From IMG/VR virus record IMGVR_UViG_3300020583_000001, positions 1-62,366 of that record: a DNA stretch of 62,366 bases. One strand, 5' to 3'. The DNA comes from a virus. Its lineage: Duplodnaviria > Caudoviricetes. Made by a program: the position numbers and the translations under genes. Below are positions 54,550 to 62,366 of this stretch, in pieces (the first letter of the stretch is position 1; every line of letters starts with the position of its first letter). The notes beneath the pieces are model-generated. The model did no database searches. It was not told the origin of the DNA and saw only the letters and a program-made list of their open reading frames with translations.

Positions 54550-54756
54550 GCGGACATTAAAAATAGGCATGTCCGCACCTATTTTCGGACATCATGCGGA
54601 CACGATTTTAACGTGTCCGCTTTTCTAGGTAAATAACTGAATACATGGGTATTTTGTAAGCGGACATGGGTTAGGACGTATTTCGGATGGATCAGCCAGC
54701 GGACGGACATCATGGGGTTTCTGGAAGAAACCCATGTCCGGCTGTCCTGTCCGCTG
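54550..54756. repeat. Iteron-like cluster (GCGGACAT/ATGTCCGC), putative replication origin
   Basis: About ten CGGACA-type copies in both orientations around an AT-rich stretch, next to the helicase gene. Confidence 0.7.
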
Positions 54757-58238: not shown

Positions 58239-58456
58239 TCTGCAAGATTTGCCATACCGAATGCTACCGCCAGTCGGAAACCGATCCGCAAGAATCTTGT
58301 CTCTGCGGAGAGATGGCTTGGGGATCGCTCTGGAATTGGGACAATAATCATCGTATATATGTCTACTGGATGTGGCTTAGATATCGGATATCAGAAGTGT
58401 TCTTTGCAGTCGGGAACTGGCTCATTAAAGACAACAGGTGGACTATCAAGCCATGA
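58235..58456 (+). CDS. Hypothetical protein
   Basis: Coupled ORF. Confidence 0.55.
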   Translation: MICKICHTECYRQSETDPQESCLCGEMAWGSLWNWDNNHRIYVYWMWLRYRISEVFFAVGNWLIKDNRWTIKP

Positions 58457-58941
58457 CCGTCACCTTCGTAATCCCGCAGCAACCTCGGGGAAAGTCGAGG
58501 CACGCAACTGTCGTCACCTTACGCTGTGGAAAGTGTCAGCGGCAAACGGTCGGCCAGCGCTCGGAATGCCCAAACTGTGGGAACAAGGATCTCTACTTCA
58601 TGTACTCGCATGAGTATACCGACAAGGACCAGCGGGAGTACGAAAGATTCGCCGCTATGTGTGCTCAGCAAGGAATGACCAATTGCACCTGCGGCAAGTT
58701 TGTGGGAGCGGTCAGCGTCCATTGCGACTTCTGGTTCGGGATTCCCAAGTCAAGGCTGAAGAAGCTGAAAGACGGCGACTGGCATCTGCAAAGACCGGAC
58801 GTGGACAACTGCAAAAAGTCAGTGCTGGATGCTTGTAATTTATTAGTGTGGGCCGACGACTGCACCATTGCCCAGATATCGGCTACTAAGAGATGGACTA
58901 CGGGAACGCCCCGTACCGAGGTAAGAGTGGAGAGCTTATGA
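58453..58941 (+). CDS. rusA: RusA-family Holliday junction resolvase with a zinc-ribbon insertion
   Basis: P.GKSR, RPDVDNCKKSVLDA and WADDCTI; inserted CGKC...CPNCG. Confidence 0.9.
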   Translation: MTVTFVIPQQPRGKSRHATVVTLRCGKCQRQTVGQRSECPNCGNKDLYFMYSHEYTDKDQREYERFAAMCAQQGMTNCTCGKFVGAVSVHCDFWFGIPKSRLKKLKDGDWHLQRPDVDNCKKSVLDACNLLVWADDCTIAQISATKRWTTGTPRTEVRVESL

Positions 58942-59450
58942 AGCCATCACGTAGCTTAGAATTACTTCGTTTATTAGTCTCCAACTCGAATCTTCGTACA
59001 GGTGTTGAAAAAAGATTCTGGACCCACGTTGAAAAGACCTCTACTTGTTGGAATTGGACTGGCACATTGAATCAGAAAGGTGGATACGCCATGTACCCAA
59101 TTCTAAGACACAACATCGTGGCCAGTAGAGTAGCTTGGGTATTAGACTCTGGTTGCGTCCCAAGCCACGATATTTGTCATACCTGCGATAATCCACGTTG
59201 CGTCAACCCTGAACATCTTTTTGATGGAACCGAACAAGATAACGCGAATGATATGGTAAAAAAAGGTCGTCAGGCAAGGTGGGAAGGGGCCGGAAATTCT
59301 GTTCTAACAATCGAACAAGTACGGCAAATCAGGGCCGAGTACCAAAAAGGTAAACCTGGATTTAGCACGGTTGCGCTTGGGAAAAAGTACGGAATAGCGC
59401 CTACCAATATCTGGCAAATTGTCGCTGGCAAGGCTTGGAGGGGAATTTGA
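58938..59450 (+). CDS. HNH homing endonuclease
   Basis: RFW..V...CWNWTG and CHTCDNPRCVNPEHL...N..DM..KGR; C-terminal HTH. Confidence 0.92.
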   Translation: MKPSRSLELLRLLVSNSNLRTGVEKRFWTHVEKTSTCWNWTGTLNQKGGYAMYPILRHNIVASRVAWVLDSGCVPSHDICHTCDNPRCVNPEHLFDGTEQDNANDMVKKGRQARWEGAGNSVLTIEQVRQIRAEYQKGKPGFSTVALGKKYGIAPTNIWQIVAGKAWRGI

Positions 59451-60304
59451 TCTACCTAGACTCGACAGCGTTAAAGGCTTGGTCCGACTGTAGAGAATTT
59501 TATCGCCAGAATCAACTGGTGAATATCGTCAGTATTGCCCCAAACATTCACTACGAACTGGGCAAGGCCGTGCATCTGGCGATAGAAAGATTTTGGGCCG
59601 GAGATTCGTTCGAGAAAGCACTGGCGGCTGCCGGTGATATTACCAATCTGTATCCCGTGAAACTGTTGAGTTCATCGGATGCCGATACCTGGAAGCGTCT
59701 GGTGGACACGTTGCCAGACATAGTAGCCAAGTATTTTGATTCAGTTGAATATGAGCCCGCTAAGCTCATCAAGTGCGAGTCGGAATGGTCATTGACGTAT
59801 AACGACGAAGTTACTTTGTGTGGTCGTTTGGATCGCTTAATGGTTGGCCCTCGCCTCGTCGATGTTAAAACGGCCAGCGAGATAAACCGAGGAGGCGTAC
59901 CTTGGAAACAGGCGTACCGGGAAGAAAAACTCCTCGATCTCCAATTTCAGCTATACGATTACTGGCTGTGCAAGTCCGGCACTCCACCCATCGAATGCTA
60001 CCTGGAAGTGATTTTGAAGCCATATAAAACGAAGTCTGCCAGATATGAGCGCATTGATCTTCCTGAGGTTATCTCCGATTCATACCGTAAGCGCTTCGAG
60101 CAGCAACTCGCATGGAAGGTTTCCGAGATCACGCATTACATCAAAAATTATTCAGATCAGAAACCGTGGCCACTAGCTGGTGGATTAGCTTGCCAGAATC
60201 GCTACGGAGAGTGTCCCTACGCTGTCGGCTGCCGTTGGGGTTGGACGCCAAAGGTGCTGGAGAAGTTTACTACCCGAACTGAGCATCTTGAGCTAAGAAA
60301 ATGA
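59447..60304 (+). CDS. PD-(D/E)XK exonuclease (Cas4/AddB-like) of the recombination module
   Basis: G.AVH, GRLDRL, LVDVKT and Q..LY motifs; C-terminal Cys cluster. Confidence 0.88.
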   Translation: MIYLDSTALKAWSDCREFYRQNQLVNIVSIAPNIHYELGKAVHLAIERFWAGDSFEKALAAAGDITNLYPVKLLSSSDADTWKRLVDTLPDIVAKYFDSVEYEPAKLIKCESEWSLTYNDEVTLCGRLDRLMVGPRLVDVKTASEINRGGVPWKQAYREEKLLDLQFQLYDYWLCKSGTPPIECYLEVILKPYKTKSARYERIDLPEVISDSYRKRFEQQLAWKVSEITHYIKNYSDQKPWPLAGGLACQNRYGECPYAVGCRWGWTPKVLEKFTTRTEHLELRK

Positions 60305-60534
60305 CTCCTTGGCCCACAAAGCGCCACGTGTTGCTCAAGCTGGTTTTAGAGCTGGAGAAGCAGGTGAAGGAAATCAAGCGAGAGATTCGAGGGCATAAGC
60401 GGGGAGACGGGATGTGTACGGGATGTGGTATCAACCCGGCGGTGGCAAGCGATACCTCGAATTACTGCGCGGGTTGCCGGAAGCTGGCCAAAGATCGGGC
60501 GGAGGCGGCATGGATCAAAAGGAAAATACGCTGA
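60301..60534 (+). CDS. Small zinc-finger protein
   Basis: CTGCG...YCAGC. Confidence 0.7.
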   Translation: MTPWPTKRHVLLKLVLELEKQVKEIKREIRGHKRGDGMCTGCGINPAVASDTSNYCAGCRKLAKDRAEAAWIKRKIR

Positions 60535-60770
60535 CGTGTGCTCTGACTGTGGTCAGGTCTAGAGGCGAGAAGAGACTGGATGGTTCGATCATCAGTTGGC
60601 ACGAGCGCTGCGGCAGGCCAGCCAATCGGATAACCCTCAAGGGTGATCTAACGGAAGCGGAAGCGGTTCTGTGCTACCAGCATCAGGTAGCGGCGGAGGC
60701 GGAAACCAGGCGTCATCAGAAAGGGAAAAAGGCCAAGCCGGTCGATCCACGGCAGACTTCTTTTATTTGA
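60510..60770 (+). CDS. Hypothetical protein
   Basis: GGAGG RBS before ATG 60510; C...CGRPA...LC..H. Confidence 0.65.
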   Translation: MDQKENTLTCALTVVRSRGEKRLDGSIISWHERCGRPANRITLKGDLTEAEAVLCYQHQVAAEAETRRHQKGKKAKPVDPRQTSFI

Positions 60771-60863
60771 GCTATGCGGTAGCGGCATTGCGGATCTTCT
60801 CCAAGTGGTCCGAGAAACTACATGGTTGTAAGTCACCCAATGTGCTGCTACTGGATAACTCAA
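60767..60863 (+). ncRNA. Putative structured RNA unit 1
   Basis: Ends pair: TTGAGCTATGCGGTAGCGGCATTG with CAATGTGCTGCTACTGGATAACTCAA; two apical hairpins. Confidence 0.6.
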
Positions 60864-60864
60864 C

Positions 60865-61087
60865 TGAGTTATGCGGTAGCAAGAGAAGGAAGTTATGGAT
60901 ACCAGACAGCCACTAGCGTTCCCGATAAAACACGTTAAGCGATCCACTAGTGGTTCCACTCACTCGGGAAAAGGAGAAACCGGACATAAGTTGCTGGCCG
61001 GGATGGGGTATGGAGCGCCTCATTACAATCGGACTACAGCCCGACATGAAAGCAAGAGTGAGCCTTCTCCTGCTACTGGATAACTCA
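60865..61087 (+). ncRNA. Putative structured RNA unit 2 (same terminal stem, larger insert)
   Basis: TGAGTTATGCGGTAGCAAGAGAAGG pairs with CCTTCTCCTGCTACTGGATAACTCA. Confidence 0.6.
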
Positions 61088-61104
61088 ATTTAATGAAAGT
61101 GTGA

Positions 61105-61917
61105 ATGAAAATGACAGATAAGAATCCCTTCAAAAGTAAGATAGGCGGTTCTGGCTCCCTCAGCGCTGACTCTGGACGAGGCAGCAATTTGGTAGCCACT
61201 CCCGAGGCAACGACGACGGAACAGGCACAACAAGATGTCCCACTCAAGGCTAGCGAGAAGGTTGCCATCATGCGCTCCTCGCAGGCCGACCAGAAGAAGA
61301 AAGAACAACTCGAACGGCTCTCCTCGATCTCGTCTCTCGACTGGAAAAGCATCCCTCCTCCGATGCTCGCCCAGTTACTGGTCAATATGCCATTCAAGGG
61401 GCAATCGGGAGAGCCGGACTTTTATCTCGAACCCTGGCAGGCAATGGTGTTTGCCATCCGCTGCTATGAGCTTGAACTCAGCCCATTCTCGAACGAGGTC
61501 TGGTTCAACCCCAAGAATAACAAAACCAACGTTTCGTTCGAGGGGAAGCTAAAACTTGCACGCAAGAATGGGCTTAATTTATCCCCTCCGATCTGCGAAA
61601 GAATTCCTGCCGATACCACGAAACCATTGGTAGCCTACAAAGCTACCATTACTACTCCCAGTGGAAAATGCGAGTACACTGCCACCCTGAAAGAGTGGAA
61701 GGTGGGAACCTCTCCGGTATGGAGGGATAAGCCAGAGCACATGCTTCAATTGCGGGCGTCGGAAAAGTGCCTCAGCTTCGCCACTGGGATCGGGACTTCA
61801 GAATTGATGGGAGAAGGCGATTTACAGGTCGGGAAAGAAGCCGAAAAGTTCATGGCAAGTGGTGCTCCGGTAATCGAGTCCACCGAGTTCAAGCCAGCCC
61901 CGATGGAGGAGAAATGA
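61105..61917 (+). CDS. recT: RecT/Bet-family single-strand annealing protein
   Basis: C..LELSPFSNEVWF, EGKLKLA and WRDKPEHML..RA...C motifs. Confidence 0.8.
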   Translation: MKMTDKNPFKSKIGGSGSLSADSGRGSNLVATPEATTTEQAQQDVPLKASEKVAIMRSSQADQKKKEQLERLSSISSLDWKSIPPPMLAQLLVNMPFKGQSGEPDFYLEPWQAMVFAIRCYELELSPFSNEVWFNPKNNKTNVSFEGKLKLARKNGLNLSPPICERIPADTTKPLVAYKATITTPSGKCEYTATLKEWKVGTSPVWRDKPEHMLQLRASEKCLSFATGIGTSELMGEGDLQVGKEAEKFMASGAPVIESTEFKPAPMEEK

Positions 61918-62210
61918 TCCCAAACGTGGAAATAGACAATCTGACCGATGAAGTTGGATCGGAGGTTAAGAGAGCAATGGGATTATTTCCTCCCATTCAC
62001 AATATGCACGAAGGTCTAGGCGTTATCGAAGAGGAGTGGGAAGAGTTCAGGAAAGAAGTATTCCTCTTTAACCTCGCCAAGGGAAGAGACACTAGGCTTG
62101 CGGCTAGAAAAGAGCTTGTTCAACTGGCAGCCATGTGTATTCGGACGATTGTAGATTGCGAAATAAATTACATAAAGGAGAATGAAAATGTCGTTCCTAC
62201 AGCAAGTTGA
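61914..62210 (+). CDS. MazG-like all-alpha NTP pyrophosphatase
   Basis: HEGLGVIEEEWEEF...KELVQLAAMCIR; GGAGG RBS. Confidence 0.75.
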   Translation: MIPNVEIDNLTDEVGSEVKRAMGLFPPIHNMHEGLGVIEEEWEEFRKEVFLFNLAKGRDTRLAARKELVQLAAMCIRTIVDCEINYIKENENVVPTAS

Positions 62211-62366
62211 GACTAATACCCGTGAGCGGATCGCCCTCTCGCCGGGTTCCTATGGGACGGGTAAAGAACCCGGCCTAAAGATTGTTTCCTACTCCGAAAA
62301 GGGCTCTAAACTCGATAAGTCGGGAGCCATGCGCCACTCGTTTATGGTGGCAGCTACAAGGCCCAG
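62188..62366 (+). CDS. 5' part of the putative SSB (continues at the window start to 656)
   Basis: AAGGAG RBS before ATG 62188; frame open to the window end. Confidence 0.75.
   Translation, partial: MSFLQQVETNTRERIALSPGSYGTGKEPGLKIVSYSEKGSKLDKSGAMRHSFMVAATRP
62240..62366. repeat. Terminal direct repeat, right copy
   Basis: Identical to 1-127. Confidence 0.95.

Follow-up and report, generated by a model that had tools for sequence, protein, structure and literature searches.

The early mRNA of phage T7 is processed at RNase III signals, and the source that describes them gives the idealized Escherichia coli RNase III substrate as a two-turn helix, equal to 22 positions, in which mismatches limit cleavage to one strand, leaving stabilizing 3′ hairpins (PMC3867540). 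Here we report on a locus in IMG/VR virus record IMGVR_UViG_3300020583_000001, a complete 62,366-bp soil phage record whose whole length is referred to below as the window. In this record two tandem hairpins, unit 1 and unit 2, lie between the genes for a PD-(D/E)XK exonuclease and a RecT-type single-strand annealing protein. Based on comparison with related loci, we interpret these units as members of an undescribed family of predicted long imperfect hairpins in the exonuclease-to-RecT operon of one clade of soil-phage recombination modules.

Like the T7-type signals, each unit is an intercistronic hairpin of a phage operon with about two helical turns broken by a non-canonical site (PMC3867540). 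The likeness extends to a position just 5′ of the ribosome-binding site of the next gene and to the similarity of sites within one genome. T7 sites occur at five to ten junctions and have an asymmetric internal loop, whereas the element described here occupies one junction per genome, is interrupted by a single G.G mismatch plus a G.U pair, and has longer stems (33–42 predicted pairs per unit, or 70 in a branched fold of unit 2) and a variable apex. The PeSL cassettes of T4-type phages are a second comparable system; they consist of a repeated stem-loop flanking small orphan sequences, with repeat-bounded insertions and deletions (indels) between close phages (PMC2839356). In the same account PeSLs contain a sigma-70 promoter and a terminator stem-loop and are present in many copies per genome (PMC2839356), whereas the locus in the window has no promoter-like site and no T-run, is single, and has a repeat that makes up the two arms of one long hairpin. 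The element is of a known type, an intercistronic structured element, and what is unusual about it is the invariant mismatch geometry and the natural gain and loss of whole units.

Unit 1 (97 nt, 60767–60863, + strand) scored 62.8 bits (E 1.4e-12) with the covariance model described below, and unit 2 (225 nt, 60864–61088, + strand) adjoins it. The arrangement L1-insert-R1-L2-insert-R2 put forward in the original prediction was found in both units. The L arm occupies 60768–60783 (TGAGCTATGCGGTAGC) in unit 1 and 60865–60880 (TGAGTTATGCGGTAGC) in unit 2, and the R arm (GCTACTGGATAACTCA) occupies 60847–60862 and 61072–61087, so that of the four starts predicted only that of R1 (60848) had to be moved, by one base. 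The R repeat amounts to 19 identical bases (60845–60863 and 61070–61088). With up to three mismatches allowed, L had 6 matches against 0.76 expected, a number seen in 0 of 100 shuffles, and R had 4 against 0.26 expected, which no shuffle reached. No copies of this handle, as we refer to the paired arms, were present elsewhere in the 62,366-bp genome; they were confined to 60768–61087.

The arms pair over 16 positions in each unit and share, as had been claimed, a G.G mismatch (60776/60854 in unit 1, 60873/61079 in unit 2) and a G.U pair two positions inward of it (60778/60852 in unit 1), with an additional C.A in unit 1 at 60772/60858. The compensating stem extensions proposed beyond the handle were fully borne out in unit 2, where GAGAAGG and CCTTCTC form a perfect 7-bp stem (60883–60889 with 61063–61069), and were weaker in unit 1, where GGCA pairs with TGCT, followed by UU with AA across a bulge. 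The arms of unit 2 as a whole (28 nt, 86% complementary, 173 nt between them) form the longest local inverted repeat of the genome. The interiors of the two units were indeed unrelated, with a local alignment score of 14 against a shuffled mean of 14.0. Folding, suggested as a check, gave −121 kcal/mol for both units together (z −4.85), which none of 100 shuffles equaled, and −38.1 kcal/mol for unit 1 alone (z −4.14). The possibility that the interior of unit 2 is itself a structured RNA was dropped (z −0.46). In the joint fold, the U-rich 5′ flank at 60760–60767 paired weakly with the A-rich RecT leader at 61089–61100, closing a junction around the two hairpins; this flank pairing was not conserved in relatives (offsets −10 to −12 of the pairing table below).

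Related loci were obtained with the RecT-type protein, which had 82 metagenome homologues and whose profile fetched 5 viral and 38 metagenome loci. The gene order RusA, sometimes HNH, exonuclease, gap, RecT was kept in the 30 loci that hold both exonuclease and RecT. The window 16-mers and the small window ORFs p77, p86 and p62 (described below) were found in none of the loci fetched by this profile. Of 32 relative loci, 9 nevertheless had a long hairpin between exonuclease and RecT, in addition to the window. Folding of each gap identified it in L027, L028, L029, L030 (with its duplicate L031), L032 and L052, with z scores of −4.2 to −7.1, and a search with the exonuclease protein added two complete phages, L065 (in genome G001) and L066 (in G002), each with one hairpin in the same place. 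The arms of the L066 hairpin are about 85% like the window's handle. Three loci (L027–L029) have a type A unit, L030/L031 have type B, and L032 has A plus B in tandem with arms that differ between the units, whereas L052, L065 and L066 each have a single unit. The gaps of the other relatives were small-protein coding or unstructured, and in many of these loci the exonuclease and RecT genes overlapped.

When 10 units were anchored on the G.G mismatch, canonical pairs occupied 201 of 210 cells at offsets −9 to −1 and +1 to +12. Pairing just outside the base (−10 to −12) was seen in only 2–5 of the 10 units, and beyond +12 in 4–8. The core of the family is therefore a predicted 22-position helix, consisting of a 9-bp base, the G.G mismatch and 12 pairs, which was present in 10/10 units and is topped by an apex of about 10 to 170 nt. 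The base has the consensus 5′ YTRAGNNRT paired with 3′ AYNNCTYAR, in which T-A at −1 was found in all 10 units, G-C at −5 and A-T at −6 in 9 each, and A-T at −2 and T-A at −8 in 8 each. Position +2 was G.U in 8/10 units, A-U in L066 and G-C in L052, and positions +3 to +12 had 2 to 5 pair types each. The ribosome-binding site of RecT followed 10–30 nt 3′ of the hairpin. This geometry was noticed on the first seven loci and was then found again, including the G.G mismatch 9 bp above the base, in L065 and L066, which had come from an independent search.

Covariation in the stem was consistent with selection on pairing. In an alignment of eight units (A6), 91% of cells were paired compared with 74.8% in shuffled alignments, a level that 0 of 500 shuffles reached, and 12 of 18 pairs had compensatory changes on both sides. 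Sliding the 3′ partner by 1–3 columns reduced pairing to 29–57%; similarly, in an anchored control of 7 units, 142 of 147 cells were paired as against 40–69 when slid. The inner helix of the two type A rows in A6 is misaligned, an error that lowered these counts and did not raise them. Three MAFFT alignments (A2, A3 and A4) misregistered the 3′ arms of some units, and the anchored tables and A6 were used in their place. The constant handle with variable cargo of the original prediction applies to unit 1, unit 2, L066 and apparently a further contig described below; across the family, where the arms differ even within L032, it is the geometry of the 9-bp conserved base and G.G mismatch that is constant, and the identical 16-mer handle is, in the sequences compared, confined to the window lineage.

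The sense strand folded better in all 8 units tested, by 0.4 to 20.5 kcal/mol, and G.U cells outnumbered A.C cells by 16 to 6 in the 10 units. In addition, the handle of L066 differs from that of the window by three substitutions, all of them A-U to G.U exchanges on the + strand that give mismatches on the other strand. Together, these data favor a folded sense strand, most simply the mRNA, as the form of the element.

A covariance model derived from A6, applied to the 251,916 bases of the window and 45 loci, gave 11 strong matches, all on the + strand and in the exonuclease-RecT gap. Of two weak matches, one lay on the opposite strand of a unit and the other was due to chance (E 0.83); unit 2 was missed because of its long insert. 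In whole virus records there was one match each in G001 and G002 and none in G003–G005. Searches of Rfam 15 with window positions 59000–62366 (E up to 10) found only a chance snoRNA match inside the RecT gene, and those with six relative loci (E up to 1) one chance match away from the hairpins, in agreement with the earlier view that no known RNA family is involved. A retron, a ribozyme and a tRNA-like element were dropped for want of a reverse transcriptase and of an Rfam match. When IMG/VR was scanned for exact copies of the two 16-mers, there were 7 and 10 isolated matches at scattered sites and no locus with both arms, which is the chance level; the type A and type B arms had 0 matches, and a degenerate window-type R pattern matched only G002. 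The 19-mer R had one match in prokaryote genomes, in a coding-like stretch of a Lentisphaeria metagenome-assembled genome with no nearby L arm, which we attribute to chance. A profile search with the RecT-type protein in genome contigs found no relative and hence gave no clue to the host; neither blastn of the region against GenBank phages nor a search of viral contigs with RecT as the single query gave a match. We found no description of such an element in the open-access literature searched.

REP/BIME sequences and MITE-type palindromes, such as Correia elements, are intercistronic, sometimes tandem, can stabilize the mRNA upstream of them or be cut by RNase III, and occur as tens to hundreds of dispersed copies. 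The units resemble them as imperfect palindromes that are intercistronic and sometimes tandem, whereas each genome here has such units at a single locus. A dispersed MITE- or REP-like repeat, of which the original prediction named the MITE as a refuting match, was therefore ruled out, and the flanks of the 10 units had no direct repeat that could mark a target-site duplication. Stop-codon readthrough or translational bypass was also rejected: in most first units the upstream ORF ends within the base of the stem, but continued translation would add only 3 to 19 codons, none of them conserved, and the L065 stop precedes the stem base by 3 nt.

The hairpin loci formed one group in the RecT tree (support 87/94), and in the exonuclease tree a group of seven stood together with one hairpin-less locus, L046 (98/99). 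The RecT tree was made without L052, where the contig ends within the RecT gene, and both trees without duplicate or fragment-only loci. Based on these groupings, a single origin within the clade, followed by divergence under structural constraint, fits best. The six complete genomes compared (the window and G001–G005, 47–62 kb) shared almost only RusA, the exonuclease, RecT and p237, a 237-residue protein (tblastn, E 1e-4). The module that holds these genes, at 58438–62366 and 1–656 in the window, is, as far as such comparison indicates, a mosaic block that includes the hairpin and is distributed among very different soil phages. Since it is all that the six genomes share, the partner of the hairpin would be a module protein or a host factor.

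The interpretation that we tentatively prefer, while stopping short of calling it probable, is that the hairpin is a cis-acting intercistronic RNA element of the RNase III processing or stability type that uncouples exonuclease expression from that of RecT. The sense-strand fold and the fixed intercistronic site just before the RecT ribosome-binding site support a cis role in the message. So do the hairpin-less relatives, in which exonuclease and RecT overlap or have small ORFs between them, and the lack of a dedicated protein shared by the hairpin-bearing phages. An RNase III-type factor in particular is suggested by the mismatch-broken helix, which agrees with the described substrates and with single-strand cleavage that leaves protective 3′ hairpins; the 10/10 units with a predicted 22-position helix compare with about 20–22 bp of double-stranded RNA expected of an RNase III signal. 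In this scheme, the hairpin would act within a polycistronic mRNA, where a double-strand-specific host factor of the RNase III type would recognize the helix and cut or stabilize the message at the exonuclease-RecT junction. The exonuclease and the annealing protein could then be expressed independently, in place of translational coupling. Unit 2 would be a second copy that keeps the handle but encloses foreign sequence, and recombination between the 19-nt R repeats would add or remove it. Transcription of the units, cleavage and an effect on expression are the parts of this scheme that we infer.

Several points weigh against an RNase III-type role. The comparison was made with the E. coli enzyme, and the preferences of the host's enzyme may differ. 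If the signal were a general one for RNase III, several junctions of a phage genome should carry it, whereas there is one site per genome, and many relatives have no hairpin at all. The conserved base sequence and invariant G.G mismatch are tighter than RNase III is known to require and point to a sequence-specific partner. A processing role also leaves the 170-nt interior of unit 2 and the possible ORF within it unexplained. Finally, the family was recognized by seeking hairpins, and parts of the geometry were noticed post hoc.

Exonuclease/RecT pairs drive phage recombination and are used in recombineering, and control of their relative expression is known for few systems. A conserved element at the exonuclease-RecT junction, within the sole module common to otherwise unrelated soil phages, suggests a control or processing signal that is built into the module and travels with it. 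If the hairpin is an RNase III-type or protein-binding site, it would be a compact natural insulator between cistrons and a testable case of a G.G mismatch serving as a recognition mark.

Protein binding is the basis of one alternative, in which the hairpin is a translational operator or insulator and a module protein binds the base, the G.G mismatch and the A-rich leader, repressing translation of the RecT-type gene. Candidates for this protein are the annealing protein itself, the exonuclease, RusA, p237 or p86, the last encoded immediately 5′ of unit 1, and autogenous control of T4 gene 32 provides a parallel. We regard an operator as rather unlikely, but it stays in play because of the single site per genome and the tightly conserved base and G.G mismatch. 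The conservation of base sequence beneath a freely covarying upper stem would suit protein recognition, as would the A-rich leader, in which 10–30 nt separate the hairpin from the RecT ribosome-binding site, the sharing of only module proteins among hairpin-bearing genomes, and the co-occurrence of p86 with a window-type handle in the window and L066. Most hairpin-bearing loci lack p86, however, and the adjoining RecT genes are very divergent (30–40% identity for L065 and L066) while the hairpin geometry is unchanged; an operator would also have no need of tandem units.

Contigs of four soil runs were compared with the region, and these showed that whole units are gained or lost. One run (X2) was identical to the window over 60513–62202. 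A contig from run X5 (record 18, 547 nt), which had 32 differences in 454 nt and is thus about 93% identical, covers 60393–60846 and resumes at 61072–61145, so that exactly 225 nt are missing, with 17 letters fitting both sides. The missing period corresponds to 60847–61071, from R1 to just before R2, although the joint may lie up to 17 places further on, and the related X5 strain has unit 1 only. The evidence for this deletion is one contig at a depth of 3.75. The word used in Logan assemblies, which we take to be 31 letters, is longer than the 19-nt repeat, and collapse during assembly therefore seems an unlikely source of the deletion. In run X4 a contig matched from 61072 on and had 255 nt of unlike sequence ahead, which suggests yet another interior before an R arm. 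One handle would then have been found with differing interiors in unit 1, unit 2, L066 and apparently the X4 contig. Such an indel needs no excision machinery, since 19-nt direct repeats beside an exonuclease/RecT system suffice.

These observations keep alive a second alternative to which we give a similarly small chance, namely that the units are exchangeable micro-cassettes whose handle is a recombination site, with handle-plus-cargo units inserted, deleted and swapped between phages through annealing or recombination there, much like PeSL repeats in T4-type phages and, in a looser sense, attC sites in integrons. The absence of exactly one 225-nt period, with its joint inside the handle, the occurrence among related loci of type A or type B units alone or of both in tandem, and the four interiors on one handle are all what such exchange might produce, and the site adjoins an exonuclease/RecT annealing system. 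PeSL repeats mediate shuffling of this kind and form mini-circles (PMC2839356). A cassette could also account for p62, a possible 62-codon ORF inside unit 2 (60895–61083, + strand), which has a Shine-Dalgarno-like GAGAAGGAAG in the stem and its TAA stop in R2. This ORF had no homologue beyond itself and no Pfam or PHROG family, and its codon statistic of −0.004 falls within the range of other small ORFs (−0.20 to +0.25). On the other hand, the hairpin genomes share no recombinase, each genome has a single locus with two units at most, and the trees look like inheritance within one clade rather than sideways spread. Homology-driven exchange needs neither the G.U bias nor the mismatch geometry, a PeSL-like promoter or terminator is lacking, and deletion between 19-nt repeats is an ordinary event. 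The mini-array of processed small RNAs, or of excisable cassettes, first proposed for the locus is only partly supported: a natural strain lacks exactly one unit, but the array never exceeds two units and the indel does not call for an excision mechanism.

The integron attC site, an imperfect hairpin with a fixed unpaired position and a variable terminal structure, in tandem units with differing cargo, is likewise conserved in structure more than in sequence. The units share with attC the conservation of structure over sequence, the imperfect hairpin, the fixed non-paired position and the tandem units with different cargo. The attC core sites have the consensus RYYYAAC and GTTRRRY, whereas the arms described here read YTRAGNNRT and AYNNCTYAR and do not contain these sites; in addition, the hairpin genomes have no recombinase in common, units number at most two, and the G.U bias of the sense strand points to RNA. 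A scan of 28 window ORFs, part of the total, found no integrase, and the genes shared by the hairpin-bearing genomes were only RusA, the exonuclease, RecT and p237. A more far-reaching version, which we consider improbable, is that the 22-position helix is a portable socket whose conserved base and G.G mismatch are read by one factor and whose apex accepts foreign sequence, such as the 170 nt of unit 2 with its possible 62-codon ORF, and that units pass between unrelated phages, with or within the module, by annealing of the handle through the exonuclease and RecT of the module itself. This would amount to an integrase-free, hairpin-bounded cassette system. If the units were indeed cassettes, phages would have a new way of acquiring small pieces of sequence.

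Processed stand-alone small RNAs, hairpins that cleavage at the stem base would release to act in trans, for example as decoys or regulators in infection, are an improbable explanation. As in many processed RNAs, the two ends of a unit form a long stem; the units may be tandem with variable apices, and the lack of an Rfam match would make them a new class. Yet the apices, presumably the carriers of any trans function, are the least conserved part, the unit 2 interior has no significant structure, and the fixed position relative to two genes suggests a cis role.

We attach equally little weight to a selfish or neutral palindrome, or a folded single-stranded DNA or cruciform site such as a RusA target or strand-specific origin, with no role in mRNA. 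The arms do resemble terminal inverted repeats, whole units are gained and lost, and RusA, a junction resolvase, is encoded two genes 5′ of the hairpin locus. Against a DNA element of this kind are its restriction to one locus per genome, with the handle at the chance level in other viral contigs and a single chance match in prokaryotes, and the lack of a target-site duplication. The compensatory changes and sense-strand G.U pairs indicate selection on the folded sense strand. Extrusion of a cruciform is unlikely with a non-palindromic centre of 60–173 nt, and a RusA-cut cruciform was dropped on account of these long centres and the sense-strand G.U bias.

Tandem intrinsic terminators are very improbable, even with stable hairpins at a gene end, because no T-run follows any of the 10 units, the terminator scan found none here, the stems far exceed those of terminators, and RecT, an essential gene downstream, lacks a promoter-like site for itself. 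The phage does use ordinary terminators, as a canonical one lies elsewhere, at 54596–54620 (a 9-bp GC-rich stem, a 7-nt loop and TTTT) at a convergent gene junction.

The window has a 127-nt terminal repeat, the mark of a closed assembly. An operon on the + strand runs from about 48.7 kb across the end of the record, and the late and structural genes are on the − strand. At the locus the order is RusA (PF05866), HNH endonuclease, PD-(D/E)XK nuclease, p77, p86, the two units, a 270-residue protein, p147 and p237. The flanking genes are all on the + strand without a promoter-like or terminator-like site between them; a scan of 59400–62366 found 0 promoter-like sites and no terminator-like site on the + strand. 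The exonuclease gene (59435–60304, + strand) was correctly named from its sequence, as it matched PF12705 (E 2.2e-09), and it has homologues in 30 relative loci. Two small ORFs separate it from unit 1. The first, p77 (60301–60534, + strand), has a CxxC...CxxC motif and a start that overlaps the exonuclease stop (ATGA), and relatives have no homologue of it. The second, p86 (60510–60770, + strand), has a probable start at an internal ATG at 60510, and its TGA stop forms the first three bases of L1; a homologue with 53% identity lies 5′ of the hairpin in L066.

The annealing protein gene (61105–61917, + strand) follows the last hairpin after a short A-rich, purine-rich leader (61089–61104, + strand), and similar leaders are present 3′ of the hairpins of relatives. 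A Pfam scan assigned its 270-residue product to no family, and there was a weak PHROG match to RecT. Foldseek searches with an AlphaFold model of the protein (mean pLDDT 73.9) identified RecT of phage A118 (7ub2, E 2.6e-05) and Red-beta (7ujl, E 4.1e-04), both with probability 1.00 and the sole matches below 0.001. The model thus indicates a RecT/Red-beta fold, and the name RecT given to this flank was right at the level of fold. Residues 1–44 were modeled as disordered, and an N-terminal motif, PFK.K, is kept in the annealing proteins of L065 and L066, which are elsewhere just 30–40% identical.

Downstream, an ORF at 62182–62366 that continues at 128–656 spans the end of the record, and with the 127-nt terminal repeat removed it encodes p237, which is kept after RecT in all module-bearing phages. 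Neither p237 nor p86 had a Pfam or PHROG family. The HNH endonuclease ORF (PF13392, 58893–59450) overlaps both the RusA gene, at its end, and the exonuclease gene, at its start, and in relatives the HNH gene is found after RecT (L022, L023, L035 and L039), further downstream (L030), or is absent; it looks like a mobile gene of the homing type. Some hairpin-less relatives have a small Cys-rich protein with a CECPC motif in the exonuclease-RecT gap (L024, 3703–3896; L046, 2585–2890), and p77 in the window, too, has a CxxC...CxxC motif.

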